The position numbers and the translations under genes are program-made. The notes under the pieces are model-generated. The model saw only the letters and a list, made by a program, of their open reading frames with translations, made no database searches and was not told the origin of the DNA. A DNA stretch of 64,000 bases from a virus. Shown here piece by piece: positions 5,135 through 62,759 of this stretch (position 1 is the stretch's first letter; each line of letters opens with the position of its first letter). The stretch covers positions 39,524 through 103,523 of the IMG/VR virus record IMGVR_UViG_3300025133_000044; one strand, given 5' to 3'.

Positions 5135-8100
5135 TTAATCGTCAAATGAAGCGCCGCTTCTGGTAATTATAAAGTCAAGGGCTATAAATTCAATAGCTCT
5201 TGCAGGCTTTAAGAAGATTTTAGCGTATAGAATATTTCTATCAACTAAATCTGGCGTTGTGGTTGTCTCGTCCAGCACAACCCTAAAGTCCGTTAAGCCT
5301 AATCCAGCTTTGACACCCTCCAAGAAAGGCTCGACCTGACCAGTAAACTTATCCCACGTGGCTACAACATTCTGGTCGAAAAGAATTCTAGAAGCGATTT
5401 GTGAAATTTCTTTCTTAATGAAGATAAGAAGTCTTCTTACGTTGATTCTGTCCAAGGCGGAAGGAGTTACCTGCAGGGTTTTCTGGCCAAAGATAACGAT
5501 TCCTTCAGCTGGGAAACTAGCGATTGGGTTAACATTTGCATCGTAAAGTTTATCGCGGAGAGCAGAGGTGAGACGTTCTCTTACCCCAATTACCGGTAAA
5601 CCTGCCGAACCTTCGCTTAAGCCGCCGCGAGTAAAGCCAGCTGGTGCGAACCAAACTGCTGATTTTCTCTGTGAGCTTGAAAAAGTACCAAGAGCGACAA
5701 CAGAAGGCGGAACATATAATATAGCGTCATTGACGTTATCTTTAATACGCACCCACGGGTAGAAAGCACAGCCATAACTCGAATTGAGGGACAGATCTTT
5801 TGCTTTATTAACGATATCAGAGACAGTACCCATTCGAGCGGCCTCGTCATCATCATTTTCGTGTCTTGGCTTATAACCGCCTTCGACATCGATAATAGCC
5901 AAAGCATCAGCACGATCCTCACAAGCGTTAACTAACATAGTATTTAATTTAGAGTTTGTGAGGCCCGGTATAGTAGCAACATCGAATTCTGCAAATTCGC
6001 TATCCGATAAGATATCAATTGCTTTTTTGACCGAGTAATATGCATAATTAGTATTTTCGGAGCCGTTGTCTATATATTCATTACGGAAAGGATCGGCTTC
6101 TGTTATATCCAATCCATCAAAGCCACCGAACATGGGAGAAGTAAACCTATTCCAATCTCTTTCCAACACTTCTGCAGAAGAGGTGACCGATGGAGTGCCT
6201 GTCTCGCCAGCAGTTATAGAACGGCCGCTAGCTCTGGAGCCACTTACCCATATCGCCTTTGAAGTATCAAACCCGCCGCTGCCGCTAACTGATTCTACAT
6301 CATCTAGGGTAAATACCCAAGAATATTTTGTTTCGTTAGCCAAACTACCTGCTAGCACGCCTGCAGGTTGACCTCTTAGAAGATCAAGGTTGGTTTTATC
6401 AAATATTCTAGTGTCTGCTAAAGTTGACTGGTAGCCGAAGTAAGCACGAGTTGCCATAACCATATTGCCCTCAGAAGCAGAAACTCTAAGTCTTGTAGAG
6501 GGCCACTGTAGAGAGGCGGTGAGACCACTAGCATTTGACGGAGTCGTAAGATGGTTGCTTTCTACTGCGGCGCCGGGGCCAACGCTGATCAGGCCGGCAG
6601 CTGCATGGCCAGTAACCAAAGAATCAGCAGGAAGTGATCCAGTACTGGCAATCCATGGATCAATATCGACACCAGCATTATCAGTTATATTAGAAACTAG
6701 TGAACCGCTTAAAAGCTGAAGTTCTCTTGGGATAACAGGTCCATAGACACCATAAGGCAATAGACCTTCGGCTCCTGCGTCGTCGACAATACGTTTGGTT
6801 TCCACTCGAACATACTTAGATCTGTTGGGATATTCTCCATGCTCAGTAATAGTTTTGGTAGTTTGATTATAAGCGTAACTTCTATCACCCACAACTTTCT
6901 TTATGTAATCAGCAGAATTTGGATTTAAGTTAAGTCCGCTAAAACGCTCAAGAATAACAGGATTGTTATCTGAATCTCCAGCTGCTCTAACAGCTAAAGT
7001 AAAAGTACCAAACTTATTAAAGTTATCAGTTGGCGCTTTGATATCCTGAAGGGAGATCTTAATATCTCTATTTATGTGCTCTCCGCTATCGTGAGCTACA
7101 AATCTAAACAACTCTTCTGTGTCGACGGTGGGATTAAAGCTAGCTGTAGTAAGACCTCTGGTATCTTGAGAAATATACCAACCAGTTCTAGCTGCGACGG
7201 CTTTTTGTAAACGGTCTGCCCAATCGACATCCCAGCCATTGCCCTGGAGACCTACAACCGCACCCCAGAACTGGCCTGTCGAAGTGACTGCTGCTCCGGT
7301 GACAGCCATATCATTTAAAACATTAGTTTCAAAAGTTTCACCAAGCCAATAAACTTGTTCAGAGTCAGCTGGAGTTATCTGAGTATTTGTTTTGGTTGGG
7401 TCCGTATTAAAAAGTTTTCTAATGTACAAATCACTGTCTTTATCAAAATTGAATGTCGCAGCTTTTACAGTTGAGCCAGATGCATCTTTTACTTTTGCTG
7501 TAAACTGTTGATTTGTTGATCTAATTAGTACGCCACAACCTTCTGTTGCTCTTCCATTGGGAGCTGTGCCAGTTATTTCAACGGTTGAACCCCCATCCTG
7601 TACATACCATATAGCAGCTAAAGTTCCCGTAACAGCAGGGCATGTGCCGCCGCCGGCCCATGCCGTCGCCCCGCCGCCGCTGTTGGCGAGGATCACATTG
7701 TCGGTCACCGCGGATCCTTCTGTGGCCGTTATACTATTCCCGACCGTACCATTCACACTTGAAACTAAGCGTACGCCTGCGGTCGTCACCGGATCAGCCA
7801 CGGCCTGGACCTTTAAAGTGCCCGCTGTATATGCAGCGTTGACCGCGTCTATGATGTTTGTCGCGAATTGAGCTGCGTTGCTATTAGCGTTCCCAAAAGC
7901 TATAACAGTCGCTGTCGAGGTCGACGTGGTATTATCTATATCAAACTCTACAGACTGACTGTCAGCATCATATATCTTAAGTTTTCTTGTGTTTGCGGCG
8001 CCGGCGGTGCAGGACGTGGCTACAACTATACTATGAGCCCCATTTCCAGAATTAGTAGCTGTATATTGATCTCCGTCTGGCGTCACAAACAAACCAAATG

Positions 8101-8518
8101 CCCCACCACAGGTAGCGCGATCGGTAGTTAATAACTCATCAGTTCTCCAGCCTGGCAATGCTTTGTCGAAGGACTCGTAACTTGTTTCAGCAGAAGTTGG
8201 GTGGTCACCCAAAAGTCGGTAGACAGTACAAGGAGAGTTATTTCGCAACCAAGCTTGAACTGCATATGCAGCATAAGTTGGAGCAGTTAACGCTCCATTA
8301 CGCCATACGTCCCCGCTCGGAGTTCCCGCCGAGGGTCGACCAAAGATTTGAACAAACTCTTTAAATGTTTCTACTTTAATCGGCCTGTTTGCCGGACCTT
8401 TTGCAAAACGACCAACGATTACTGGTCCCATGCGCTCCGGAAGTGCCGGTAATGCGGACTCGTCAATCTCATCCATAAAAATACCGGGTGAAATAAATTT
8501 AAATTTATCGACTGCCAT
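5135..8518 (-). CDS. gp18: Contractile tail sheath protein (gp18-like) with insertion domains
   Basis: N-terminal FISPGIFMDEIDES; C-terminal WFAPAGFTRG, NPIASFP..GIVIFGQKTLQ...SALDRINVRRLL, KPARAIEFI. Confidence 0.95.
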   Translation of the reverse strand: MAVDKFKFISPGIFMDEIDESALPALPERMGPVIVGRFAKGPANRPIKVETFKEFVQIFGRPSAGTPSGDVWRNGALTAPTYAAYAVQAWLRNNSPCTVYRLLGDHPTSAETSYESFDKALPGWRTDELLTTDRATCGGAFGLFVTPDGDQYTATNSGNGAHSIVVATSCTAGAANTRKLKIYDADSQSVEFDIDNTTSTSTATVIAFGNANSNAAQFATNIIDAVNAAYTAGTLKVQAVADPVTTAGVRLVSSVNGTVGNSITATEGSAVTDNVILANSGGGATAWAGGGTCPAVTGTLAAIWYVQDGGSTVEITGTAPNGRATEGCGVLIRSTNQQFTAKVKDASGSTVKAATFNFDKDSDLYIRKLFNTDPTKTNTQITPADSEQVYWLGETFETNVLNDMAVTGAAVTSTGQFWGAVVGLQGNGWDVDWADRLQKAVAARTGWYISQDTRGLTTASFNPTVDTEELFRFVAHDSGEHINRDIKISLQDIKAPTDNFNKFGTFTLAVRAAGDSDNNPVILERFSGLNLNPNSADYIKKVVGDRSYAYNQTTKTITEHGEYPNRSKYVRVETKRIVDDAGAEGLLPYGVYGPVIPRELQLLSGSLVSNITDNAGVDIDPWIASTGSLPADSLVTGHAAAGLISVGPGAAVESNHLTTPSNASGLTASLQWPSTRLRVSASEGNMVMATRAYFGYQSTLADTRIFDKTNLDLLRGQPAGVLAGSLANETKYSWVFTLDDVESVSGSGGFDTSKAIWVSGSRASGRSITAGETGTPSVTSSAEVLERDWNRFTSPMFGGFDGLDITEADPFRNEYIDNGSENTNYAYYSVKKAIDILSDSEFAEFDVATIPGLTNSKLNTMLVNACEDRADALAIIDVEGGYKPRHENDDDEAARMGTVSDIVNKAKDLSLNSSYGCAFYPWVRIKDNVNDAILYVPPSVVALGTFSSSQRKSAVWFAPAGFTRGGLSEGSAGLPVIGVRERLTSALRDKLYDANVNPIASFPAEGIVIFGQKTLQVTPSALDRINVRRLLIFIKKEISQIASRILFDQNVVATWDKFTGQVEPFLEGVKAGLGLTDFRVVLDETTTTPDLVDRNILYAKIFLKPARAIEFIALDFIITRSGASFDD

Positions 8519-37812: not shown

Positions 37813-40686
37813 TTATGTTTTAACAGTCTTTTTTTTCTTTTTAAAAGCTAAATTGACATCAAGCTTTTTACCTGTGCTTTTTGAAGTCATCCTAACTTTA
37901 AATCTTCTTTTTGTATTTTCGCTATAGCTAGTAAACATGTAATCCACACCTTTACTATCAGTAGTATACACCTGTTGCGGCGTTGGTTTAATATAAATAT
38001 ACTTTTGACACTCTTTTACATATTCTTTTAATTTGGGTTTCTTAAGTCCAACGACCCTTATCATGGGTTTTACTGCTCCATGCTCATCAATTAATTCTAC
38101 TTCAAAAATCGCTGATGGGTTTGATATATGATTATGGTTATCGATAGCTCTAAAAGTATAATAATATTTTGTATTGGGCAATATTTCTTCTTCATAGAAA
38201 TTTTTGTTAACTGTTTTGTAAAGTTCAAAATCAGTATATTTTTTTGGTTTAGTTTGTATTCTGAAAATTTCAAATTTCTTAATTGGATCATCCGATCCAA
38301 ATTCTACCTTACCATCTGGTGAGAATTGTGCATCTTTGATAAAGTTAAATTTTGCCTCGTCTTTTTCTTTATTAAGATAAATTGGAAAATCGCGATATCT
38401 ATCGACCATTCCATTAAATAAAATCTTGATTCTATTATTGACAGCCCTATAAGGAATTATATTAACATCTGGTGCAACAGGGGGCTTGTCCAGTATTCTA
38501 ACTTCTGGCGTTGAAAAAATTAAATCCTCCATCATAACGATATTTGGTTCAATTTTAACCCGCAATTGCGCGTTGTAAGTTTCTACACTGCCGCCATCCT
38601 TGACTCCGGTGCCGGCAAGAGGATTGCTACTTGCAAAAACGGGATCAGGTATAATGTTTATCTCTTCTATATTGCCAGGTTTATAATCTTCGGTCGGCTT
38701 CTGTTCATTACCAGCAGAATTAATCCAAATGTATCGATACAAACTACCAAATACAATTCTCTCTGCATAAACATTATATTTATAGACAGCATCGTCAGCA
38801 TATTTTACCTGTGTATCCACGTATTTAACGATATCTAAATCAGAAGTATTAGGAATAATAATATTTTGTAAATGTACAAAAGAACTTGTACCTTTGTGTT
38901 TTACTAATTTTTCTATCCTATAAAATATATCTTCCGTATAGGCTGGTTTTCCATTTATAATTTCTATATAATCTCTTCGGTGCGCTTTATATGTTTTAAT
39001 TATTTTATCTAATAAAATATTGCCAAATATGGTTTTAAAAATTGCATTGCACGTGCTTATGTCGCCCATTCCAGTAGATGTTTCGCTGTGTACATAAGAC
39101 AAAAAATTCTGTATATCGTCAAGATCGGAACCATCTTCCTCTGGGTATGTATAAAGTGAGTTATCGTCTATAAATTCTTTTAATACTCTAAAAATTTTTA
39201 AAACATCTTTTTTGCTACTTTTTATTTCATTTTGTGTTGCAAGCGGTGTTGCTAGTTCTGCTACAGATAACTGTGAATCTGCATTGATATCTTCATAAAC
39301 TTTTTCCTCGTAAAAGTCATGAAAAGATTGGCCCTTATACCAACCCAGGGCGCCTGGGCCAGAGCCGACAGAGTTACCAGCTAACGAACGAAATAAGTCT
39401 TCTTTTTTAAAAGTTGTTAGGTTTATTCTATGGGTGGAGTTTTCAGCTATTATATTAGATAAATATTTTGTCATAAGAGTGTTTTTTATTAAATCACCTA
39501 TTTCAGTCAATATTTGTGCTGTAAATTCTATTTCACCATAAAAAGGAAAATAATTTTTATATTTCTCAATTTTATCGATAAAATTTGTAACATCAGGACT
39601 AAAAGCAATATTTGTAAAAGTGGCTTCCAAAAGTGTCAACCCAAGTAACTCTAACCAAGTAACTGCGGGAGATACTTCCTCAGCCCACTCATCAAAGTAA
39701 TCTTCGTAAAAAGCAGTAACATCATCTCTTTTGTAATTTATATTTGTAAATTTTTGTATTGTTTCTTTATTAATTTTTCCGTAATAAGTGGTAAGTACAC
39801 TAAAGGGACGGCTGACTAGAGAAGGGCTCATATCGTTGGATCCAGAGAGCTCTTGATATATTTTATCTAAATCAAGTTCATCGTACATTATATCCAAAAA
39901 ACCGTATACAGAAGGAATCGAATTGTTAAAACCAACGGATTTTATCTTGTTCTCAAAACTCATATTTCTGCCGCCAGTACGAGAACTTGACCCAACTCTC
40001 TCATTATAAAATGTTCTTACATCTGCAAAAAAAGCTTTGCCCGATGGCTGTTTTGAGGCCAGTTCTTTTTTGGTAAAAGGCAAAAATGTTTCATGATATA
40101 AATCAGAAAATGTATGGTTCGGGTTGGATACGATTGGCTGTAGTATCACGCCGTCAGTATCATAAAGACCTGCTTTCATTAAAAACATCCACTTTTCTAG
40201 AGTCGGGGCACGTTCAGGATGTTCCACGTATTCACTTTGGTCCTTTGGTAAATCACAGGCTATAACAATCTTTTGTTCTGTTACCATATCACTCTGATAG
40301 GCGATAGGCGGGACGGCACCTCTTGGAAGTTTAGTAGAAGTATGCCCCACCGGGTCGCCTGATAAATCACTCGTGCTTTCAGGAGGAAAATTACACTCTA
40401 TATATAGCTCTTGGCCATACCAAATTTTCGGCTTCGGCGCCCAGGTATTTATTAGTTCTCCATCATTAGAAACAATCCAGCTCTTACCCAAAGCCATTCT
40501 TAAGATATCTTTACGAAGATCAGGGGAAGGGGCGTCGGGGCCCGTAGTGGTACCTTTCTCCAAAAATACTATTCTGCCTTTATCGTCTGGCAACGGAAAA
40601 GAATCGGCAGCCGCGGCAGATCTGCGCCCATAAGAAGCATGGTCTATCACTTTTTTCTTTTTTCCTACTAATTCAAAGTCAGCCAT
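37813..40686 (-). CDS. Large virion protein with FN3-like repeats
   Basis: YVDTQVKY....YKYNVYA and PNTKYYYTFRAID.....SNPS motifs. Confidence 0.65.
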   Translation of the reverse strand: MADFELVGKKKKVIDHASYGRRSAAAADSFPLPDDKGRIVFLEKGTTTGPDAPSPDLRKDILRMALGKSWIVSNDGELINTWAPKPKIWYGQELYIECNFPPESTSDLSGDPVGHTSTKLPRGAVPPIAYQSDMVTEQKIVIACDLPKDQSEYVEHPERAPTLEKWMFLMKAGLYDTDGVILQPIVSNPNHTFSDLYHETFLPFTKKELASKQPSGKAFFADVRTFYNERVGSSSRTGGRNMSFENKIKSVGFNNSIPSVYGFLDIMYDELDLDKIYQELSGSNDMSPSLVSRPFSVLTTYYGKINKETIQKFTNINYKRDDVTAFYEDYFDEWAEEVSPAVTWLELLGLTLLEATFTNIAFSPDVTNFIDKIEKYKNYFPFYGEIEFTAQILTEIGDLIKNTLMTKYLSNIIAENSTHRINLTTFKKEDLFRSLAGNSVGSGPGALGWYKGQSFHDFYEEKVYEDINADSQLSVAELATPLATQNEIKSSKKDVLKIFRVLKEFIDDNSLYTYPEEDGSDLDDIQNFLSYVHSETSTGMGDISTCNAIFKTIFGNILLDKIIKTYKAHRRDYIEIINGKPAYTEDIFYRIEKLVKHKGTSSFVHLQNIIIPNTSDLDIVKYVDTQVKYADDAVYKYNVYAERIVFGSLYRYIWINSAGNEQKPTEDYKPGNIEEINIIPDPVFASSNPLAGTGVKDGGSVETYNAQLRVKIEPNIVMMEDLIFSTPEVRILDKPPVAPDVNIIPYRAVNNRIKILFNGMVDRYRDFPIYLNKEKDEAKFNFIKDAQFSPDGKVEFGSDDPIKKFEIFRIQTKPKKYTDFELYKTVNKNFYEEEILPNTKYYYTFRAIDNHNHISNPSAIFEVELIDEHGAVKPMIRVVGLKKPKLKEYVKECQKYIYIKPTPQQVYTTDSKGVDYMFTSYSENTKRRFKVRMTSKSTGKKLDVNLAFKKKKKTVKT

Positions 40687-50930: not shown

Positions 50931-53900
50931 CTAAATTATTGATCCTGTTATCCATGCATATTGTTTATCTGTTCTTGGTATCATATGTGAGATAAAAGCG
51001 TTATCATACATTTGCGTTGTCCCCAGGCAGAGTCCGGATGCAGAGTCGGGACCAGATATTACTTGGGGGTATGAGCCTCCTGGTCCTACATTTGTGCTAT
51101 TCGAGCTTTTTCGGTCAACAGAGGTTATTATAAGGGCGCCGTTGGCTGTTAATATATCACCGATATCTCCCATCTTCCACCAAGATACTAAGTTACTATA
51201 CTGAGAATGTTCTTCAAGATCTCCAGGGCCGGGTTGATGGTCCGAGACAATCCCGACACATGAATGCCCATTGTATAATTCTAAAACTTCTGCTGCTGTT
51301 AGCTCGGTTTTCCACAAACTTACCTCGTCTATAGCACCGTCAGCAAACTTATCAGTAGAGTCGTCCTCCTTGCCAATGTTAACAGGTGCAGAGGTATTGT
51401 GCATAGTAGCGTAATCATTTGCGCCTGTTGACTCGGCATGAATAGATGAAACTTGCTGGCCATTTATATATAATTTAATAGTTTTAGCGCCGACAGCTGC
51501 GTTGGCTGTAGCGGCTACGTGGGCCCACGCTCCCTCGATCGTAGCGATGGCGGCGGTGGTGGAGAATTCTTGTTCGTATTTAGAACTAGTTTGATCATAA
51601 ACTGTCAATGACAATTTATCAGCGTCAGTGACTTCAAATCTATATTCGTAAGCTGCAGCGCTGTGGTCAACTTTTTCAAAAATAGGAAAGTTAGTTGCAT
51701 CAGTCATTTTAACCCAAGCGCTAATAGAAAATGGAAGATCTGCAGCCACAATGTCGTCAGTGCCGCCAGTAAAGTTCGGCAACGTAACGGTTCCCTTCGG
51801 CACGAAATTCAAACCCACGACATCATGGTCCTGCTTTGATGTCATTACTACATTACCAGCATCGCCATTTGTACCCTGTGTAAGAAGAAGCGTTTGATCT
51901 AGCAAGCTTCCAACAAAAGGAGGACTTCCAGATGTAATATCAATATGGTTATTGGAACTAGCACCGTTAATAGCTGCTTCAATCATCTCTGCAAGGTCGA
52001 AGGGATCGATGATTACTGCTTCGCTAGCAGCTATAATATAGTTGATAGGGGTAACAGTGTCATCATAAGTAGATATGCCCAAGGAGGTATCAAACGTAAA
52101 TTTTACTTGTTGGCCTGCGACATCCTGTAAAATGAAGTATTCATCATCTAATCCTACCGGTTGATTAACTTCATCGACGCCGTTGAAAAAGTTATTTGTA
52201 GAAAAACTCAACGTGGCTGTGGTGCCGTAAAAGACCTCGATGAGCCAAGGGGCTGTGTAGGTTGTCTCGACGGCTGTATTCCCTTGCGGGCCCTCGTGGT
52301 CTTGTGTGAGAATAAGCGCCCAGCTTCCGGGTGGGGCGGTGGGATCGCCAGAGAGACCAGCCACAGCAGTAGTGGACAGAAGCTGGGGGGTACTCTGCAT
52401 ATAATTAATAGCTTCTTCTATTGCGACTGCTAACTCCTGTGGAGTAGTGATATTGAGAGCTGGTATAACTACAAATCCCTGACCGGTGATGGCGTTGTGG
52501 GTGTAGGTGATGAGGGCCGCGGTGATATCAAAAGAAAATTTAAATGTGCTAGGTGAAACTGGTGCACCGTCAGTTAAAGTGAAGGTTTCGAATTGTAATC
52601 CTAGCGGCTGTATGATTGCGTCCTCTCCACCTGTGAAGTTTATAGAACCAAGTAAAGTAAGGGTGTCAGCATCCTCAACAGCATCGAGTGCGCTGAGAGC
52701 TGCAATAGGATTTCCATTTCCAATAACACCTAGCTGACCTTGCGTAAGAACAATTGTTTGTTCTAAACCTGGGTCGCCGGATCCGGGATGTGGATTTTGA
52801 ACCAATATGTCAATATGATGCTGAGTTTGCGCAAATTCTATCGCGCCAACAATTGCAGAAGCTAACAAATATGGATTATTCTGATCTCTAATACCCACAC
52901 TTATATTTACAGGAGTAACTGCAGTATCCTCAGTTATAACATCATCAGTATTGTCAAACGTGAATTTTACTTGGCGGTCGGCGTGGTCCTGTAGAGTGAA
53001 CCATTCAGTATCCAGGCGGGCTAGCCAGCCAGTGGCGCCCGTGAAATATGCCTGTGGATAAGCCGGAATTTTGAAAGTGTCTGTCGTTGTAGCTGCCGCG
53101 CCGGGGATATTGGCCGGCCAATCGCCGGCGACCTCAAGAATCGCCTGGGCAGAGACCCCTGTTATGTCAGCAGGCCAGTTGCCAGCGATAGCAAGAGTTG
53201 ACGTAGCAGGTGTGCCAGCGGCAGCTGCGACGGCAAAAGAAAGTGAATCAGAATCGTTAACTTGAAGGTAACTATCCGTTCCGTTGAAGGAAGCAGCTTT
53301 ATTTTCAGATAAGGGTACTGAAATAGGTACTTCAGAAGGTCTTTCGAGATTGTTCCTGTGATATTTATGTTTTGACGCGTCGCCTTCAACTTGGTAATTA
53401 GATGAGTTTATTGCGCCGGACACTTCTGATCCGTATACTCTTGCAAAAACAGTACTTGGGCCATGGGTACTTACACCAAACTGGCCCATGTGTGCTTGAA
53501 GTTGGGTACTGAGAACTTTTCTACCCCAATTATTTCTCCACGGCATTGCATTGTAAACAGAATAAGTTTCGTGGGCTGGATCTCGAAAGCCACGTGACAT
53601 AACTTCAAAACCACCTGGAGAACTGAATTTGTTTTTAAATCTCGTTCTATTTTTTACAGATCCAGATATATAATCTTTATTAAGACAGTTGTAATCAATA
53701 CGTTTCAATTCAGTTCTAACTGTACCGGGAGGTATAGACAAAACTTCTTCAATACTACCAGTACCAATTCCTAATATCTCTGCTGTGATACTAGTAATCT
53801 CGTCAACGTGTTTAACGAACCAGGGGTCATTTGCTTCTGGGCTTACCGTGCTAATATATTCATATCTATCAAGATAATTACCTGCTTTCGTTGGTGAAGA

Positions 53901-56900
53901 GGCTGTCATTTGAATATTGCGTATGTTTAGTGGACGTTTTGCATATTCTTCACGAGTATATATAGCTCTTGGTCTGTGATGATTATCATGCATCGCATCT
54001 ATTAATCTAACACTATTTTGTTGTACACCGGAGGGAATTAGTACAATCACTCGATCAATTGCGCAATCCCCAAGATGAGTTATTCCGGCAGTATAAAGAA
54101 ATCTTAAATAAAATCTTGTACCTAAAACTTCTTTACCCAAAGAAGTTGCAAGATCACTAGTATTCGCCCACCTCCAATCATCCACACCAGAAGTCTGCTG
54201 CTGACCTATAATACTGGTACTAGTAAATGGACTGGCACCTAGCCAATCCCATACTAGCGGTATATCGGTAACTCCTGTTTGAAAAGTAGAATCTTGTGAA
54301 TGTTGAACTTTTAAGTAGCCCATATGAATACCATACATGTGGTACTTAAAACGAAAAGTAATATCGCCAGAATCAAGTTGGAGAAGATCAATTAGTGGAG
54401 TAACTAATCCAAAAGTCTGTCCTACAGAAGCCCAAGTTACGTTACAGAAAGCATAGCCAGTACCAGCTTGATCAAGTACATCTGGGCCTGTCCCAACAGA
54501 TGGAGTGGAAGTATTAGTGAGAGACCAACCATACTCAGAACCTACTCCAGTACCTGTTTGCCAATTGTCTTCCATACTAGGATCATCAGGTATGCCAGAC
54601 GGACTAAGAATGGTGAAATCGTTGGTAAGAGCAACGTCGACCTGTTCAAATTGCTCATATAAAGCGTAACTAGTACTTGATAAATTACCAAAGAACTCCA
54701 ACTCCCAGCCCTCAGGCCTCGTTAACTCATGGTCTAATTTGTTATTATTAGCAGAATTAACAATAGGGTCATATCGATTTATATCAGCATGCCGATATTG
54801 CATACCACCAACATATTTTTCAGTAAATGGACCCTGCATGGGGACTTCTGGTTTAACGCCATATTCATCATGATGAACATTTGTAAAATCAACTGGTATG
54901 ATGTCTTTATGGCCTGACATGTATCCAGTATCTATAGAAGAAGAATACATGTTAAAAGGCAGTAGTAGCGTGCTCTTCGCATCAGAATATTTTATATCGT
55001 TAAGACCTGTGCCTTCTGCGTTTGAATTAACAGTTTCCTCTGCTGTCATTGTAAAAGCTTTTACTGTATACTGCTTTTTATTTGATTCATCAGGAATTTC
55101 CTTATCGATAATATCAATTTCTTTAATTTCATGATCTCGATCGATCCAAATGTAGTCATTGTCACTTGCCCACTTAATAACGCCTTTGTAATAATCATGT
55201 ATATTATTATTTTTTGGATTTGATCCTCCCTTAAGTTCAAGTGAGATCTTCTTATCTAGATGAACAGGAACAGAAAGACGACGTGGTTTATATTGAGAAC
55301 CCTCGTATTGAGCTTTACCAATTGTTTTTAGTGTCGGGCCTTTAGCATCTAATTCAGTAATAATTCTTTTTAATAAGATATCTTTATTATCGTTTACATT
55401 ATCGACACTAGAAGATATTTCTAAAACACTTCTTTCTGCTCTCTCTTTCCACCAAAGATGATTTCTGTTCTGTGCTAGCGGAGATTCAGGTAAGGGGGCA
55501 TGCCCAAATTTCCAATTATATAAAATCTCGTTAATCCCCACCAAAGAAGAAATTGGAAATTTAACTTCCGTATCTAGAGTTGGAAATTTAGTCATATATT
55601 TATTTCTTTCTAGTATATGACTTTCAACCATGTTTCTGAGAAGTTCTACAGAATTAGAAGAAGCAGGCATTAATTGTGCTATCATTAAAGTAACAGCTTC
55701 ATCAACCCATTTATAATATTCAATGAATTTATCCAAATCTGGTGTATTTTCTACTTTTTCAAAGAATAAATCAGATAATTTCTCCATGCGCTTATAATCT
55801 GATCGATAGCGGTTGACAGGATCTCCAATAAGATTGTTAAAATCGACAATTGTTGCAAAAAACCTTATCATTTCTTCAGAAATGATTTGATACATACTCT
55901 TTTCAATAGAAATAAGGTGCTGAACATAAGTTGTATCTCGTGTAAAGACTACTTCATCTTGTTGTGATAGAATTTTAATAAAATCATCACTATTAACCGT
56001 CTCCGGAAGCTTTTGTTTGGCAGCTTGTACAAATTCGACGTCTATAGCTTGATCTGCATAATTGGGATCCCTAAGAAAGAAGTCGGCGCGGCCAGAATAG
56101 TTGTGTTTTGCCACATCACTAACCCAACCATATCTTGATATACTCTTATCATAAGCTGAGCCTGAAGCGAAATCTTCAATTAAAAATTGTCCACTGGCAT
56201 TTGAACCAGTTACATTGTCCAAAGTCCAGTTTAAAGCTAAAGTCTCTATTTGTGGAATAAAATCATCAAATAATTCTACGTGGCTGGCAGCAAAATTACT
56301 ATTTTTATAAGGATGTAATGTACCATATATATTAGCATCTCTTGCATGAGCACGAATTGTTTCATTAGGCAAATAATCAAACCAAAATCTAACAGAGGAT
56401 ACTTTTACATCTGAATATCTTGATATACTTCCTGTAAAGTTTTCTCTTTTAGAGCCTGCGTAAAGTCTCTTTGGGAACCCAAAAAATTTTCCTGCGTCTG
56501 TTTCACTCATAGTCCCGGTTATAACAAATTCATTCTGTAAAATATTAGATAAATAATTAACCCCATAAAATTCATATGTATAAGCTATGTTTTCTTCTTC
56601 TAAGCTTTCGTCCACGAAACTTGCAATAGGGTATTTCGTTGGTCTAAGTCTAAATGCCAAATTCCATTTTTGGTTATCATATACTTCCATATAGGAATCT
56701 GATTTCAATGTAGCTATTATTGGTGAAACACCATCAGCCACTAAGGCGAAGCTAACGTTTCTCCTATCATTGTTTCCTTTAATCGCAACAATATTAAAAT
56801 TAGTTGTATTATCTGTGTGATACGTTAAATCTGTATTTGAGTCGTATACGGCATCCATCCCCACAATAGAAGAAGTCAAAGATGGGAACATCTGATAATT

Positions 56901-59060
56901 TGGATCACCAGCTAACGATCTTTTTGGGAACATGACTTCTGCTTCAACTGTCATGGCGGCGCCGGAAGCGTATGTGCCAAGAATACCAGGTATAAAAGAT
57001 AACGAATTGGAATCGGAAGAATCGTAATACTGATAAGCAGTTGCGGTAAAAGATCCAGAATACGTTGTCTTGTTTGAGGAGTCAAATCGATTTTCTAGAT
57101 CATCGAAATCAAGAAATTTCTTTTTTATAGAAGTATGAGAATAGGTGTCTTTTAACTCATATGTATCGTTAGTCGCATAAATATTTATTTTAATTAATTC
57201 TTCATCAACGCCGTAACATCTAAGGAGATTTCTTAAAGATTTTATAGTGCCTTTTGATTTTTGAATATATGCTAAATTATTATATATGTTTTGGTATATT
57301 GTATCTTTTACTTCATAAAGCTTATTCTCATAAAGTTTTTTCTCTCCTCTTTGAAGGTATTTTGATAATATTGAAGCATCAGCAAATAATTCTGGCGTGT
57401 CAAATCCGCGCGAACTCAACAAATAGCTAGCAAAAGGCAGAGGTTTTTCGTAATTGTTATCATAAGGATAGTTTATATCTCTCAACCTCGGAAGACTTTC
57501 CATCTGAAGATATAAGTTGTCAAAGTAACTCGCGATGATTTGTGTTAAAAACCTTAAATGTCCCGATTCAGATTCGTCTTCTTCTAAAATCCACCCTGGT
57601 ACTGACTTGTATATTGATGAACCATTTAAATGATCGTGTATTTTTCCAATAGCTATTTTTCTATTTAAGAAAGAAGAAACTTCTGGGTGGTCTGGATATA
57701 TGATTGGATCTTTAAATTCATATTCAGCAGCTTCTGAAAGGATAATAGCAGAATTTGTATTTCTTGACTCGGAAGGGTTATAATTTATGAATTTACCATT
57801 AGAAATTCTTCCAGAATAATCTAGTATTACAGAATCAGTAGAAGTTTCTCCTACTATGCCCTCATTAAACTTATAGTAAACGCCAAGATCTACTTTATTT
57901 GTTACATCATCGTATTTTTCATTATCAGTATTGGTGCCGCCGCCTATTTGAGTTCTATAATATCTTCCAATTTGTTGTGCGTCCCTTTCTGTTTTCCAAT
58001 ATCTAAATTCGTCAAAAGAAGCAGAAACAATGTTACCCCAACCCTCTCCAGAATTGAGGTAGGCGCCGCCGGGGCCGGCCATGGCGCCGAGAGCCGCTAC
58101 CATAGTACCCGAAGCAGCAGGATAGGGGGCATTAAGAGTAGCGACATCTTTGTGCGCGCCATTTAAATACAAATTAACTGTAGTTATTGGTAAGCCGGAT
58201 ACGGGTGCGGATCCTTTATTTTTAAATGTGACAGCATAGTGTTTCCACTTTCCGTCTGCAATACTTTCTCCTGTTTCTAAAGTAAAAATTTTACCCTGGA
58301 TCGCAGACCCAACAAACCCCTCTTGTGTATAAAGGACGGCCCACAGGGTGTTTTCTTGGCCGGGGATGTTACTTGTTTTAATAGAGAGATAATCAGTTGT
58401 GGCGCCTGATGCGTCTAAAGAAACATTATCAAATATAGTTTCGAGCGAACCATCCGGAGCAGTGCCATCTTTTTTCATCCAAAATTCTACAGTGACACCT
58501 TTATCCAAGTCAAGTTCTAAATTATTAGTTCTTTGACTGGCAGTATGGTATATATTTGCTTTTGATACTCCTATTCCAGAAGGGCCGGCGGAGAAGTCGC
58601 TTTTGTAATCACCAGATGGATCTGCATGGGGGCCACCATAAAAAGAGATATATTGAGGGGCGCTACTAGAATATTGTAAAGCAGATACAGTCGAAGTATA
58701 AGTGCTAGAACCGCTATTAAATGTAATGTACCCGTTAGTTCTGGGATATTCATGCTCAAAAATGAAAAGATCTAGATAAGTACTCTCATTTTCCCATTCA
58801 ATTTTTTCTGTTAATGAACCATCATATGGATATGTTTGATACACCCTTTTAATGGAGTTTTCATAATAAAGTTCGGCTAGCCCAAAACGAGCAAAGTTAG
58901 ATGCAGTTGTGAAGTCTACATCTGGAAAGAATCTGTCCCTTCGAGTTGAATAAACATCAATATACTTTGCAGATTCTAAATCTTTTGCTAAATCATTTTG
59001 GGATTTATTCTTAAGAAACTTTAGCGAATGGCCCTTATCAAATAAATCTTTTATACCCAT
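50931..59060 (-). CDS. Giant baseplate wedge protein (gp7/gpI-like core) with two LamG domains, a MAM domain and nested insertion modules
   Basis: YI.KSKGT.KS.RNL.RCYG wedge motif; LamG motifs TVEFWMK / WKHYAVT / FDEFRYW and FSISAWVK / WAHVAAT / IDEVSLW; MAM motifs GTGP, F.YHMYG, GD.AID. Confidence 0.8.
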   Translation of the reverse strand: MGIKDLFDKGHSLKFLKNKSQNDLAKDLESAKYIDVYSTRRDRFFPDVDFTTASNFARFGLAELYYENSIKRVYQTYPYDGSLTEKIEWENESTYLDLFIFEHEYPRTNGYITFNSGSSTYTSTVSALQYSSSAPQYISFYGGPHADPSGDYKSDFSAGPSGIGVSKANIYHTASQRTNNLELDLDKGVTVEFWMKKDGTAPDGSLETIFDNVSLDASGATTDYLSIKTSNIPGQENTLWAVLYTQEGFVGSAIQGKIFTLETGESIADGKWKHYAVTFKNKGSAPVSGLPITTVNLYLNGAHKDVATLNAPYPAASGTMVAALGAMAGPGGAYLNSGEGWGNIVSASFDEFRYWKTERDAQQIGRYYRTQIGGGTNTDNEKYDDVTNKVDLGVYYKFNEGIVGETSTDSVILDYSGRISNGKFINYNPSESRNTNSAIILSEAAEYEFKDPIIYPDHPEVSSFLNRKIAIGKIHDHLNGSSIYKSVPGWILEEDESESGHLRFLTQIIASYFDNLYLQMESLPRLRDINYPYDNNYEKPLPFASYLLSSRGFDTPELFADASILSKYLQRGEKKLYENKLYEVKDTIYQNIYNNLAYIQKSKGTIKSLRNLLRCYGVDEELIKINIYATNDTYELKDTYSHTSIKKKFLDFDDLENRFDSSNKTTYSGSFTATAYQYYDSSDSNSLSFIPGILGTYASGAAMTVEAEVMFPKRSLAGDPNYQMFPSLTSSIVGMDAVYDSNTDLTYHTDNTTNFNIVAIKGNNDRRNVSFALVADGVSPIIATLKSDSYMEVYDNQKWNLAFRLRPTKYPIASFVDESLEEENIAYTYEFYGVNYLSNILQNEFVITGTMSETDAGKFFGFPKRLYAGSKRENFTGSISRYSDVKVSSVRFWFDYLPNETIRAHARDANIYGTLHPYKNSNFAASHVELFDDFIPQIETLALNWTLDNVTGSNASGQFLIEDFASGSAYDKSISRYGWVSDVAKHNYSGRADFFLRDPNYADQAIDVEFVQAAKQKLPETVNSDDFIKILSQQDEVVFTRDTTYVQHLISIEKSMYQIISEEMIRFFATIVDFNNLIGDPVNRYRSDYKRMEKLSDLFFEKVENTPDLDKFIEYYKWVDEAVTLMIAQLMPASSNSVELLRNMVESHILERNKYMTKFPTLDTEVKFPISSLVGINEILYNWKFGHAPLPESPLAQNRNHLWWKERAERSVLEISSSVDNVNDNKDILLKRIITELDAKGPTLKTIGKAQYEGSQYKPRRLSVPVHLDKKISLELKGGSNPKNNNIHDYYKGVIKWASDNDYIWIDRDHEIKEIDIIDKEIPDESNKKQYTVKAFTMTAEETVNSNAEGTGLNDIKYSDAKSTLLLPFNMYSSSIDTGYMSGHKDIIPVDFTNVHHDEYGVKPEVPMQGPFTEKYVGGMQYRHADINRYDPIVNSANNNKLDHELTRPEGWELEFFGNLSSTSYALYEQFEQVDVALTNDFTILSPSGIPDDPSMEDNWQTGTGVGSEYGWSLTNTSTPSVGTGPDVLDQAGTGYAFCNVTWASVGQTFGLVTPLIDLLQLDSGDITFRFKYHMYGIHMGYLKVQHSQDSTFQTGVTDIPLVWDWLGASPFTSTSIIGQQQTSGVDDWRWANTSDLATSLGKEVLGTRFYLRFLYTAGITHLGDCAIDRVIVLIPSGVQQNSVRLIDAMHDNHHRPRAIYTREEYAKRPLNIRNIQMTASSPTKAGNYLDRYEYISTVSPEANDPWFVKHVDEITSITAEILGIGTGSIEEVLSIPPGTVRTELKRIDYNCLNKDYISGSVKNRTRFKNKFSSPGGFEVMSRGFRDPAHETYSVYNAMPWRNNWGRKVLSTQLQAHMGQFGVSTHGPSTVFARVYGSEVSGAINSSNYQVEGDASKHKYHRNNLERPSEVPISVPLSENKAASFNGTDSYLQVNDSDSLSFAVAAAAGTPATSTLAIAGNWPADITGVSAQAILEVAGDWPANIPGAAATTTDTFKIPAYPQAYFTGATGWLARLDTEWFTLQDHADRQVKFTFDNTDDVITEDTAVTPVNISVGIRDQNNPYLLASAIVGAIEFAQTQHHIDILVQNPHPGSGDPGLEQTIVLTQGQLGVIGNGNPIAALSALDAVEDADTLTLLGSINFTGGEDAIIQPLGLQFETFTLTDGAPVSPSTFKFSFDITAALITYTHNAITGQGFVVIPALNITTPQELAVAIEEAINYMQSTPQLLSTTAVAGLSGDPTAPPGSWALILTQDHEGPQGNTAVETTYTAPWLIEVFYGTTATLSFSTNNFFNGVDEVNQPVGLDDEYFILQDVAGQQVKFTFDTSLGISTYDDTVTPINYIIAASEAVIIDPFDLAEMIEAAINGASSNNHIDITSGSPPFVGSLLDQTLLLTQGTNGDAGNVVMTSKQDHDVVGLNFVPKGTVTLPNFTGGTDDIVAADLPFSISAWVKMTDATNFPIFEKVDHSAAAYEYRFEVTDADKLSLTVYDQTSSKYEQEFSTTAAIATIEGAWAHVAATANAAVGAKTIKLYINGQQVSSIHAESTGANDYATMHNTSAPVNIGKEDDSTDKFADGAIDEVSLWKTELTAAEVLELYNGHSCVGIVSDHQPGPGDLEEHSQYSNLVSWWKMGDIGDILTANGALIITSVDRKSSNSTNVGPGGSYPQVISGPDSASGLCLGTTQMYDNAFISHMIPRTDKQYAWITGSII

Positions 59061-59082: not shown

Positions 59083-60963
59083 TCAATTGCTCTCTACTCT
59101 GAATTTAAACATTTCTTGCTGTTCTCGCCAACCATCCGAAGAATGATAAGCAAATTTTATAGCATACATATAGCCAGGTTCCAATAAAGTCATATCAAAA
59201 TCAAAATAACTTCCAGAATTATCATAAGACAAATAAGTATGGTAAGTGGTATTTGAACTTGCCGTTGAATGATTGAAAATAGTCTCACCGTCAGCCATTC
59301 TAATGATTTCGTAAGAGGCACTAGGAATTGTAGTTCCTTGAATATCAGTAGAAGCAACGGAATATATTGTTGGACTAAAGTTTCTTGGTCTGGTGAAGAC
59401 TCTAAATTTAGCTTGTTCTTCTTTGCTATATGAAGGTTTCAAGTTGGTTATTTTTGTCGTGAACTGATTATAATCATTAGATGTTAATACACAAGTATCA
59501 TTAAAGTTCTTAACAGCAACTGAACCAGTCTTATATTCTCCGCCTATACTACCTGACCACACATCATGCAATAAAGAGGAAGAAGAAGTTAAAAATACTT
59601 GAGCTTTGTAAATTCCTGTACTTTGTTTTGTCGCCGTGGCTGTTTTTAATACGGCGCCTGTAGGAGTATTACTTGTACTTTCATATAATTTAACTTTTAA
59701 TGTCTCACTATGTGGTATGTCTTTAAGTTTTCCACGAATATAATTGTACAAATATAAATTATTTAAATTATCAGAAGCAGGAGCGATAGAACTGCTTGAA
59801 TAAAAATTACCTCTATCATCTGCAACTCTAGAATCCCAACGAGCTTCTAGGGCCGGCCTTTTAAAGAAAAATTCGCTGGATCTTGCAAAAAATCGTTTTG
59901 TATAAAAGCTTTTTCGTTGGCCAGAAGTATTGGCCAGGACGCTACCACTTGCTGCTGCGGCATATGCTTCCTGATTAGAAGTCAAGAAAACACCGAAACC
60001 ATAATTTGGTTGCCCGTCTGTATCTATCCACTCTTCCACTGCTGACGTCACATCAAGCAATAAATCTTCATCACCACTTTTAAAAGTACAAGAATAGCCA
60101 GGCATAGTTGAGCCAGCAACGTAAGCAGATGTATGATAATCGCCGCCAACTGTTACCCATTTTCCAGTCCCTCCAGAGAAATTTTGTGCTGTAAGATGAG
60201 CAACACCACTGACATCTACCGTAGTGTTACCGCTATAGCCCGTATTGTCTTGCGTCAAGGGCAGCGTCATCTGCGAATCTGCGTCACCAGCAGCCACTGC
60301 GGTTCCAGCTGTTATCGCAAGAGCAGATACATTATTGATTGCAGTCTTAATTGAATCAATCGCTTGAGTAGTATTCGAATCACCTGTAAAACCAATAGTG
60401 CCTGCAGAATTGACAGAGCCGTCAAAATCAAAAGTAAAAGTTTGAGACACTCCATTAGCGTCAGTAAGAACAAAAGTTTGAGCATCCATCGCTGCTAAAT
60501 TTGCTCCACCTTGAAGCACTAAATTAGTAGTAGCGGAAGCAAAGTCATTGGTGCCATTTATCCAATTTGAGCCATCAATGCCATCTTTCGTTTCGTCGGT
60601 ATAGCCCTCCATATCCAAGCCATATCCTTCTTGCCAAGATGATGATACCGCTAATACATTTACAGTAAAGTTTTTTGGAAGTTGTTCAGAATGTCTTGCG
60701 TTAAACATCCTTAAGTAGAAATTAACGCTTCCAGATGCTGGAATCAGACCAGCTGTTCTATCAGAAGTTACACTATCAACTGGAAATTGTATCAAGACGC
60801 GAGATAATTCAGCCGAAGATGTTGTTTGTTGACCATAAATTGAGAACACTTCTAAAATATCAGAAGCTCCCATGTTTGAACCGGTCCCGCGCGTGCTTAA
60901 ATTTAATTTGTAGGCATTGGTTATAGTATTGTCTGCTGACGCTTTATATCTTTTAATTGCCAT
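59083..60963 (-). CDS. Baseplate-associated DNRLRE/CBM96-like protein with an inserted module
   Basis: SR.LIQF, L.......F......V..SW.EG, W...GGDY, DVT..VE.W....NYGF, F....S.....P.LE..W. Confidence 0.65.
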   Translation of the reverse strand: MAIKRYKASADNTITNAYKLNLSTRGTGSNMGASDILEVFSIYGQQTTSSAELSRVLIQFPVDSVTSDRTAGLIPASGSVNFYLRMFNARHSEQLPKNFTVNVLAVSSSWQEGYGLDMEGYTDETKDGIDGSNWINGTNDFASATTNLVLQGGANLAAMDAQTFVLTDANGVSQTFTFDFDGSVNSAGTIGFTGDSNTTQAIDSIKTAINNVSALAITAGTAVAAGDADSQMTLPLTQDNTGYSGNTTVDVSGVAHLTAQNFSGGTGKWVTVGGDYHTSAYVAGSTMPGYSCTFKSGDEDLLLDVTSAVEEWIDTDGQPNYGFGVFLTSNQEAYAAAASGSVLANTSGQRKSFYTKRFFARSSEFFFKRPALEARWDSRVADDRGNFYSSSSIAPASDNLNNLYLYNYIRGKLKDIPHSETLKVKLYESTSNTPTGAVLKTATATKQSTGIYKAQVFLTSSSSLLHDVWSGSIGGEYKTGSVAVKNFNDTCVLTSNDYNQFTTKITNLKPSYSKEEQAKFRVFTRPRNFSPTIYSVASTDIQGTTIPSASYEIIRMADGETIFNHSTASSNTTYHTYLSYDNSGSYFDFDMTLLEPGYMYAIKFAYHSSDGWREQQEMFKFRVESN

Positions 60964-62759
60964 TACTTAATAGTTCCTTTAATATCAAGATTTGGATATT
61001 TTAATTCATAAACTACATTTTCAGGCGCATATAATATGCGGCCGTCGGCAGAAATGTTTTCTTCTATATCATATGAAAAATCAGAATATAAACCACCAAA
61101 TTTATGTTCTACTTGAACATCTGTCACATCAACAATTTCATCAAGTTCATTTACCATATCATAAATTTTTGTAATGTATATTGGCTGTCCAATATCAAGC
61201 TTTTGAACAAACATTCGTTGAATCGTCTTTATAGCTTCGTTAAGAGCTTCAAATTTATCTTGTTCATATGTGGTAACAGCAATAAATTTTATGCTAATAT
61301 TGATTACTCTTGCATCAAGTATGTCAATAGTATCATTTATCATTTTATAATGATTTAGCCAAGTTTTAACGTTGTTCTTCAGAACTTGGTTGCAGGTTAC
61401 CAGGTTTTGATCTGAATCTTCTGTAAGCAGATGCAAGTTTAGATTTCTTTTAAAAGAATCTAAATCTCGAATAATCTTTGCTCTTTTTACTTTTCCAAAT
61501 TTCGCTGGCATTCTATAAATAAGAGCTTCATAATCTTCTGCTGTTACAGCTCTGTTTTGTGTGGCAAAAACATCGTTGACTCTCTGTTTAAGTTCCATAA
61601 GGGAGGGAAGAGACACATCTCCAGTCACAGGTTCCTCGTTTGTTACTTCCAAACTATCTTTAACAAAATTAATCTTGCCTTGGTTGGTGGCATCTTCGTT
61701 AAATATAAATAATGGACTCAATAAATTAGTAATTGAATTTGTGGCGGCGTTAGCATTTGAAGCCACATTAGTTCTGTAAACGACTTTTAAAGCAGTATTG
61801 GCCGGCGCGACTCCAAATTTATCAGTTTCTAATAATTTAGAGGGATCGAACGAAGTATCCGTTTCATAATCCCTACCGTGCATTTTTAACACGATATTCG
61901 AAGGATGAGTTATATTATCTAGTTTTAAAGAAGATTCAGACCCATAACCAAATTTTAGAAGTGTTTGAGTAGCACGATTAAAAACAGTAAAGCGACGAGG
62001 AACAGAAGTAGCGACAAGGATGCTTGGTACTCGGTCTCTTGTACCAGGATCTTTATTAATTATTGTCCTGAAAACAGTATCTTGTGAAAGATATCCTACT
62101 TCAAAATATTCATGTCCCTCTGCATCGACCACAGAAATTATTTCTGTTATATTAGGGTTTGACAATGGAACAGTCAAGAATCTTCTAAAATCTCCTACAT
62201 TTATAGTTTCCTGCTTTATCTCGCCAGACACAACCCTCCCATAAGTTTTAATAGCAAAAGAGCTAGCGACGCCCGTGTTAGAATCGCTCGTGGCAACAAC
62301 GATTTCATTATCAGAATTAGCAAAATCAACATTATCAAGTAAAGTAAAGACTTGTCCTGCCTTGGATGTAAATTTTGTGTCTTTCACTAAAATTGGTAAA
62401 TAATTTAGATCTGGTCCTGAACCATTGGGATCGATGGGGGCTATAATATACAAAGCGACGATGCCAAATGAATTTGACTTAAGCGGTTGTTTATAACCAA
62501 CTTGTTCTCCCAGCCGCACAACATTGTTATACTCTACAGCTGTATCTAAAAAAGATTCGTTTGTTTGGTAATCTAAATAAAAGGATAGAACGTCTCCAAC
62601 ATAAGCAACAGTATCTAACATTAATGAACCGAAAGAAGCTTCAGAAAAGTCTTTAAAAATATCTGGATAATATCTTTTTGTATAGTTTACTAAACCTTCT
62701 TTAATTGTATTAAAATCACGATTTGTATACCTAATAAGTTTTTTGCTGTCTTTAGCCAT
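60963..62759 (-). CDS. Baseplate wedge protein (gp6/gpJ-like)
   Basis: Y..RDF..IK..L......YP..F.DF.E.S.G...LD..AYVGDVLSFYLD; FG.G; QNRAVT.EDY. Confidence 0.9.
   Translation of the reverse strand: MAKDSKKLIRYTNRDFNTIKEGLVNYTKRYYPDIFKDFSEASFGSLMLDTVAYVGDVLSFYLDYQTNESFLDTAVEYNNVVRLGEQVGYKQPLKSNSFGIVALYIIAPIDPNGSGPDLNYLPILVKDTKFTSKAGQVFTLLDNVDFANSDNEIVVATSDSNTGVASSFAIKTYGRVVSGEIKQETINVGDFRRFLTVPLSNPNITEIISVVDAEGHEYFEVGYLSQDTVFRTIINKDPGTRDRVPSILVATSVPRRFTVFNRATQTLLKFGYGSESSLKLDNITHPSNIVLKMHGRDYETDTSFDPSKLLETDKFGVAPANTALKVVYRTNVASNANAATNSITNLLSPLFIFNEDATNQGKINFVKDSLEVTNEEPVTGDVSLPSLMELKQRVNDVFATQNRAVTAEDYEALIYRMPAKFGKVKRAKIIRDLDSFKRNLNLHLLTEDSDQNLVTCNQVLKNNVKTWLNHYKMINDTIDILDARVINISIKFIAVTTYEQDKFEALNEAIKTIQRMFVQKLDIGQPIYITKIYDMVNELDEIVDVTDVQVEHKFGGLYSDFSYDIEENISADGRILYAPENVVYELKYPNLDIKGTIK

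Follow-up and report, generated by a model that had tools for sequence, protein, structure and literature searches.

Insertion of one protein domain into another is common. Sheath proteins such as T4 gp18 contain domains that are nested in one another and, to our knowledge, these nested domains have different folds and are not copies of one domain. Repeated insertion of a domain into its own copy is documented, in the papers that we found, only for Si3 and one flagellin. In Si3 of the β' subunit of cyanobacterial RNA polymerase, homologous HABAS (SBHM) domains are recursively inserted (PMC11515920; Qayyum et al. 2024 as cited there). In the flagellin of Geovibrio thiophilus, the structure of which has been solved, D4/D5 arose by duplication, one copy being placed in a loop of the parent domain, and has a FliD-D2-like fold (PMC11532411). 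Here, we analyzed 64,000 nucleotides (nt) of viral DNA (positions 39,524 to 103,523 of the IMG/VR record IMGVR_UViG_3300025133_000044; this whole stretch is called the window), which encode a virion protein of 2709 amino acids (aa) from the baseplate region, P0001. Its C-terminal LamG domain contains an insert of ~500 residues. We consider it likely, judging from sequence, that this insert is a three-level stack of one ~140-residue alpha/beta domain, hereafter the module, whose copies are nested inside the first LamG loop.

The putative stack shares two properties with the HABAS domains of Si3: the copies lie several levels deep in a loop of a host domain, and the outer copies consist of discontinuous segments. 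In contrast, the Si3 domains have an unrelated fold, reside in a cellular enzyme and nest in one lineage, whereas the phage module belongs to the virion surface, and its nesting appears to have arisen repeatedly, in various host proteins and with the use of three or more loop sites. The flagellin shows one-level self-nesting in the same broad fold class (module versus FliD, Z 7.3-7.8, a range for which the tool warns that a match may reflect a common arrangement only), whereas three to four levels are suggested for phage baseplate proteins. No detectable sequence similarity of the module to flagellar proteins was found in searches of Pfam and in profile searches of PDB sequences. The initial annotation regarded the module as undescribed. 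This is correct for the family, for which Pfam has no model, and incorrect for the principle, of which Si3 (PMC11515920) and flagellin D4/D5 (PMC11532411) are earlier examples. The family as such appears to be new, and so do its deployment in various phage virion proteins, the number of nested levels, the use of several insertion sites and the frequency with which nesting occurs independently.

The insert in the first LamG loop of P0001

Every motif listed in the initial annotation was found at its place in P0001: SFNGTDSYLQ at aa 1924, ATSTLAIAG at 1952, AQAILEVAG at 1971, ATTTDTF at 1990, LDTEWFTLQD at 2016, QPLGLQFE at 2151, QPVGLDDE at 2300 and DLPFSISAWVK at 2441. The insert covers aa 1943-2440 (window positions 51741-53234, minus strand). 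The LamG remainder behind it was identified by Pfam family PF13385 (Laminin_G_3; aa 2441-2592, 109.1 bits against a gathering cut-off of 27.6) and by PDB entry 4qvs (E 1.9e-7). The segment in front of the insert, SFNGTDSYLQV...SLSF, belongs to the same jelly-roll domain. It is joined to FSISAWVK in four relatives, P0004, L001, L007 and L017; in L001 the jelly-roll profile PF07953 covers the pre-junction strand from residue 18, and the segment is lost along with LamG in relatives that do not have the C-terminal cassette described below. The gap between SLSF and FSISAW is 8 residues in P0004 and 11 in L001 by counting, and similarly short in L007 and L017 by alignment, as compared with 501 residues in P0001 and 810 in another relative, P0003. 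The short loops of the four relatives bear out the claim that LamG is split by the insert. Thus, P0001 has a clear member of PF13385, but one with a 501-residue insert in the first loop, which its closest relatives do not have. The shortened Pfam match of LamG (profile positions 16-150) was also considered as evidence for the split and was rejected, because the matches of uninterrupted relatives also begin just after SLSF, at positions 4-10.

The insert contains three bodies, which are called C, B and A in the order of the chain. They are paralogues that can be aligned over their whole length, and their profile matches have independent E-values of 1e-61 to 1e-64. The match of module C extends over aa 2016-2147. 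Bodies B and A each adjoin the F.GG.D end of the body before them, and the profile matches them only from model positions 32 and 29 of 153, respectively. In single copies of the module, a first strand, s0, lies 6-10 residues ahead of the next strand, s1 (8/8 single copies from the window and relatives). A scan with an s0 matrix found no internal s0 in bodies B and A, and three s0-like strands are stacked ahead of body C. The matrix is a position-specific scoring matrix of nine columns, which was made from 100 family modules with P0001 and P0003 excluded and which replaced whole-profile scoring of leader plus body. Its consensus is A-T-A-T-I-T-V, and one Ala is 79% conserved. The matches in P0001 (scores in Table 1) are at aa 1951, 1970 and 1989, with a spacing of exactly 19 residues, whereas only three positions score above 7 in aa 1-1900 (Poisson P ~2e-4). 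The three predicted leader strands exceed chance. The first two are each followed by a WPAxIxG connector; that of leader 1 recurs in P0003 and in P0127, and leader 2 aligns with ATAIFYALKEWPASVIG of P0003.

P0003 is the only close relative that shares the nested insert, and no closer relatives of the insert were found in phage records, viral contigs and shorter proteins. It has four bodies and four leaders, three of which were detected with the s0 matrix and the fourth by eye. Of the four bodies, the innermost matches C best and the third matches B best. The outermost can be aligned with A, but A has higher scores with other bodies. The third leader and the second body, which are extra in P0003, are positioned as a nested, non-crossing order predicts.

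It had been claimed from the sequence that C lies inside B, B inside A and A inside the LamG loop, and that the copies are not in tandem. This claim is supported at the sequence level by the bodies B and A without s0, by the three stacked s0 strands and by a family-wide association of these two properties. The inner and outer units are homologous, and the outer units appear to be discontinuous around a complete inner unit. We infer which leader would complete which body from the non-crossing topology and from the comparison with P0003.

Table 1. Window positions of the P0001 gene, of the LamG and module segments assigned in it and of the two other module copies
Feature	Position	Strand	Basis
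Gene for the 2709-aa baseplate-region virion protein (P0001)	50931..59060	(-)	Open reading frame list and translation
LamG/concanavalin-like N-terminal strands (aa 1918-1942, ...ASFNGTDSYLQVNDSDSLSF), cut off from the rest	53235..53309	(-)	Contiguous in relatives
Leader 1: putative detached s0 of outermost module A (PATSTLAIA) and connector NWPADITG, aa 1951-1968	53157..53210	(-)	s0 matrix 9.7
Leader 2: putative detached s0 of middle module B (SAQAILEVA) and connector DWPANIPG, aa 1970-1987	53100..53153	(-)	s0 matrix 8.3
Module C (innermost), whole and uninterrupted, from s0 at aa 1989 to the FTGGED end of its body at aa 2147	52620..53096	(-)	s0 matrix 11.6
Module B body, aa 2148-2296, from loop QPLGLQFE just before s1, no s0 of its own	52173..52619	(-)	Profile match
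Module A body, aa 2297-2440, from loop QPVGLDDE, no s0 of its own	51741..52172	(-)	Profile match
LamG remainder, aa 2441-2680, from DLPFSISAWVK	51021..51740	(-)	Pfam PF13385 and PDB 4qvs
Single un-nested module copy in the 626-aa protein	60142..60555	(-)	Profile match; copy used for modelling
Single module copy within inserted regions of the 1127-aa tail sheath	7631..8068	(-)	Profile match, ~aa 186-281

Arrays in the module family and rival readings

A profile of 11 module copies was searched against 1.84 billion representative proteins. The family comprises 675 representative clusters at E <=1e-3 and 134 at E <=1e-10, and many of the proteins have multiple copies. In the 150 top-ranking representatives of the family, bodies that adjoin one another form two types of array: tandem arrays with s0 before each body, and arrays without internal s0. 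Two or more stacked leaders were observed in 7 of the 11 arrays without internal s0 and in 17 of the 156 others (Fisher P 1.2e-4). In these seven arrays the number of leaders is the same as the number of bodies. The two counts agree with the matrix in P0011 (three each) and in P0008, P0038, P0045, P0121 and P0123 (two each), and an eighth array, that of P0094, agrees when read by eye. P0123, which has 737 aa, is homologous to the 626-aa protein of the window, and it is two deep where the window's protein is one deep. Another pattern, an N-terminal half, a whole module and a C-terminal half, was revealed by the profile in P0027, P0093, P0150, P0064, P0135, L075 and L099. In these cases two other loop sites are used, and the outer halves are long enough to be identified by the profile. 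Across the family, at least three different loop sites are used (model positions ~22, 61-70 and 99-108; P0027 is nested at the pre-helix site), and nesting depths range from one to four.

Several individual proteins extend this survey. In L075 (aa 651-879) and L099 (aa 77-324), one whole module interrupts another at profile position ~99-104, immediately ahead of the LTQ strand. The inner module of L075 belongs to the 'DKPNE' subfamily and the outer module does not; therefore, at least some of the nesting is due to shuffling and not to local duplication. P0127, a 261-aa fragment related to module C, has a WPAEVIG leader and the N-terminal half of a second module ahead of an inner module. Its stack is placed after a ...WWTMGD strand, outside the first LamG loop, and is therefore the same type of nest at a different host position. 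P0148 (a family representative of 1445 aa) has about six s0-like strands within 90 residues (aa 200-290; ATGSITIDG, ATGTITASG, ATADIVVGG, ATATITIDG, ATGSITVPS and AGTIDISF) and about eight bodies downstream (aa 443-1264). Nesting may go far deeper in this protein, with a different domain in the middle.

The insert of P0001 could also be an ordinary head-to-tail array, in which only the first module keeps s0 and the s0-less bodies fold alone. The Ala/Thr-rich leader region (aa 1943-1988) would then be unrelated to s0 and serve as a flexible linker or form a small sheet by itself. Tandem members do exist in the family (P0099, P0075 and P0060), and a number of results weigh against nesting. The arrays of P0080 and P0056 perhaps have bodies that truly do not contain s0, with no matching leader, and therefore an s0-less body may be viable. 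When s0-A or s0-B was fused to its body, the whole-profile score stayed flat and did not rise above shuffled controls, with profiles of 8 and of 100 sequences. The s0 signal is only ~7 bits and comes from an Ala/Thr-rich motif. An AlphaFold2 model of aa 1915-2709 from six sequences has a mean predicted local distance difference test (pLDDT) score of 37, which is low confidence, and shows no strands in the leaders. Strand pairing and the positions of the termini in the single copy were read from secondary structure only. However, the true tandem members retain s0 before every body, and leader and body numbers agree in P0001 and six family proteins by the matrix, and in P0003 and P0094 by eye. 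Moreover, the evenly spaced s0 matches of P0001 stand far over background, and s0 ranks among the two longest strands of the confidently modelled single copy. We therefore regard a head-to-tail array as unlikely. A strand-exchanged chain, in which every s0-less body borrows the final strand of the body before it or in which leaders and bodies pair in crossing order, would be intertwined and not of the Russian-doll type. Si3 HABAS domains are reported to swap secondary-structure elements (PMC11515920). The closest pair among the bodies is A/C (score 183) and that among the leaders is A/B (57), which is unexpected if one whole module was copied at each level and also counts against simple nesting. 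About 32 of the 57 points come from the shared WPA.I.G connector (BLOSUM62 sum), and the mismatch may have come about because A and C exchanged sequence at a later time. The connectors between leaders are 7-9 residues long, too short to span a whole module as a crossing order demands; the extra leader and body of P0003 are located according to the non-crossing order; and wherever halves can be identified by the profile, the order is always nested. Strand exchange is thus highly improbable, and the nested stack is preferred.

How the nested copies arose is a related question. An in-frame mobile display module with a preferred insertion site in itself had been suggested in the initial annotation, together with an inspection of the DNA junctions for microhomology. 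In its full form, this would be a true mobile genetic element, with a dedicated DNA-level mechanism for copying the module into its own hairpin. The annotation's claim of five copies in three genes was confirmed, as iterated profile searches of the record (~100 kb) found exactly five copies: P0001 has three, and the 626-aa protein and the tail sheath have one each. Single copies at many different sites in relatives of P0001, the two subfamilies combined in L075 and the near-identical nested copies of P0150 would also fit such an element. At the DNA level, however, the best direct repeat among the window copies is 59 nt at 76% identity, and no terminal repeats, no flanking or junction repeats and no junction homology were found in the window. 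The module has no endonuclease or recombinase part and is fully accounted for by a fold of 138 residues. The family makes use of three or more loop sites, which does not agree with a preferred site, and therefore shuffling plus selection fits better than targeted insertion. There is no sign of an autonomous mobile element, and we give a dedicated mobile mechanism hardly any probability. The nested copies would rather have originated by repeated duplication and domain shuffling through illegitimate recombination, filtered by loops that tolerate an insert.

Fold of the module and shape of the putative stack

AlphaFold2 modelled the single copy of the 626-aa protein, from 55 aligned sequences, with a pLDDT of 92.9 and a predicted template modelling score of 0.87. 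The model has the following order of elements: s0 (9 residues), a short helical turn, the s1/s2 hairpin, a 14-residue helix with a short strand on either side, a 10-residue strand with the LTQ motif, and the final strand ahead of F.GG. Strand s0 is located in a block with a mean pLDDT of 96. The model shows that s0 is an integral strand of the predicted single-copy fold.

The best structural matches of the model are protruding domains of tail sheaths, that is, those of phage Mu (9khy_a 98-224; Z 9.7, 115 residues aligned, root-mean-square deviation 3.0), cyanophage A-1(L) (8kee_A 91-184; Z 9.4) and PhiTE (9cb9_A; Z 8.0). Weaker matches, all in the range to which the tool's warning applies, are FliD D2-D3 (Z 7.3-7.8, as above), T4 gp11 (7.6) and flagellin outer domains (7.3); Foldseek gave its best E-value, 3e-3, to FliD D2-D3. 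Predicted viral structures that match the module are baseplate-J-like, sheath, tail and uncharacterised proteins. Thus, the modelled fold resembles a sheath protruding domain and, more weakly, the outer domains of FliD and flagellin. The sheath encoded in the window itself carries a copy of the module. In sequence, no Pfam family matched the module (55 members, E up to 0.1), and the best E-value of the family profile against PDB sequences, solved sheaths included, was 0.39, which is no match. Since no sequence-level homology was found, we describe the module as fold-like and not as a member of a described family.

In the nested stack, each module would open with the long strand s0, which a short hairpin connects back to s1. 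This s0/s1 hairpin would be opened in A and B, and the next module seated there. The chain would run from the LamG strand through s0-A, s0-B, the whole of C, body B and body A to the rest of LamG. Short conserved connectors would join the levels, WPAxIxG on the way outward and QPxGL on the way back, and the chain would cross every junction twice. Because s0 is a long strand and the module itself sits in a short LamG loop, the hairpin would be at the end of s0 opposite the chain termini, and therefore successive levels are expected to line up end to end as a projection. This projection would be three modules long, perhaps ~100 Å by our estimate, and would extend from LamG at the baseplate periphery. 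It is probably a spacer or an adhesin on the periphery of the baseplate, for reach or for surface binding. The earlier idea of a telescoping stalk is not supported and we judge it to be speculation.

The family has tandem and nested arrays side by side, and its host proteins also exist without the insert. It is thus a natural comparative system for asking which loops tolerate an insert, how nested duplications originate at the DNA level, and whether two-strand junctions are stiffer than beads on a string. For annotation, the module merits a family model. It can also be imagined that the family is a dedicated 'self-nesting' building block, by which marine phages lengthen rigid projections of baseplates, sheaths and fibres level by level, possibly at least six deep as in P0148, and that WPAxIxG/QPxGL evolved as a hairpin acceptor. 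We find this rather unlikely; if true, it would be a growth rule at the protein level that is distinct from tandem repetition.

Genomic setting and the C-terminal cassette site

The window is part of a 103.5-kb record with an estimated completeness of ~57%. Its structural genes are T4-like and lie on the minus strand; they encode a terminase, a portal, a major head protein, a tail sheath of 1127 aa and a gp6-like baseplate wedge. The closest cultured terminases, those of Flavobacterium phage immuto and Microcystis phage Mel-JY01, have only 44% identity. Related contigs are metagenomic, and their record names include Tara Oceans scaffolds. The source is an uncultured marine T4-like phage. The P0001 gene is located two genes downstream of the gp6-like wedge gene (60963-62759), which matches baseplate wedge PHROGs, and the 626-aa gene is also upstream of P0001. 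The protein collection contains a protein identical to P0001, P0002, and P0003 has the same architecture, which makes an assembly artefact unlikely.

The 1127-aa protein was identified as the tail sheath by phrog_23 (E 3.7e-60). The phrog_23 profile covers only ~450 positions across the 1127 aa encoded by the sheath gene (5135-8518, minus strand), and therefore ~650 residues are insertions, one of which is the module copy.

The C-terminal end of P0001 is marked as a cassette site. In many relatives the whole cassette is absent and aa 1-1907 are joined straight to the conserved tail (~aa 2668-2709). In the comparison of L001-L018, all cassette-site relatives finish with the same conserved tail of ~30 residues. 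The site contains nothing in L002, L005, L006 and L008-L011, one LamG in L001, L007 and P0004, two LamGs in L017, a single module instead of LamG in L003, and LamG with four nested modules in P0003. Because its contents are so variable, the site is a likely determinant of host-surface contact.

Upstream of the cassette, aa ~1509-1590 of P0001 (54040-54665) weakly match a scavenger-receptor SR-C-like chain (8yt7, E 0.007), in agreement with the MAM-like domain named in the initial annotation. The guanine-plus-cytosine content is 0.44-0.52 in the LamG and module region (51100-53500) as compared with 0.30-0.38 in the conserved middle of the gene (55000-57700). The higher content of the C-terminal variable part may come from Ala/Gly/Thr-rich coding or from acquisition from elsewhere. 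In L058, L061, L080, L125, L076 and other relatives of P0001, single modules are observed at many positions of the chain. Thus, the module behaves as a promiscuous insertion domain in the P0001 protein family.

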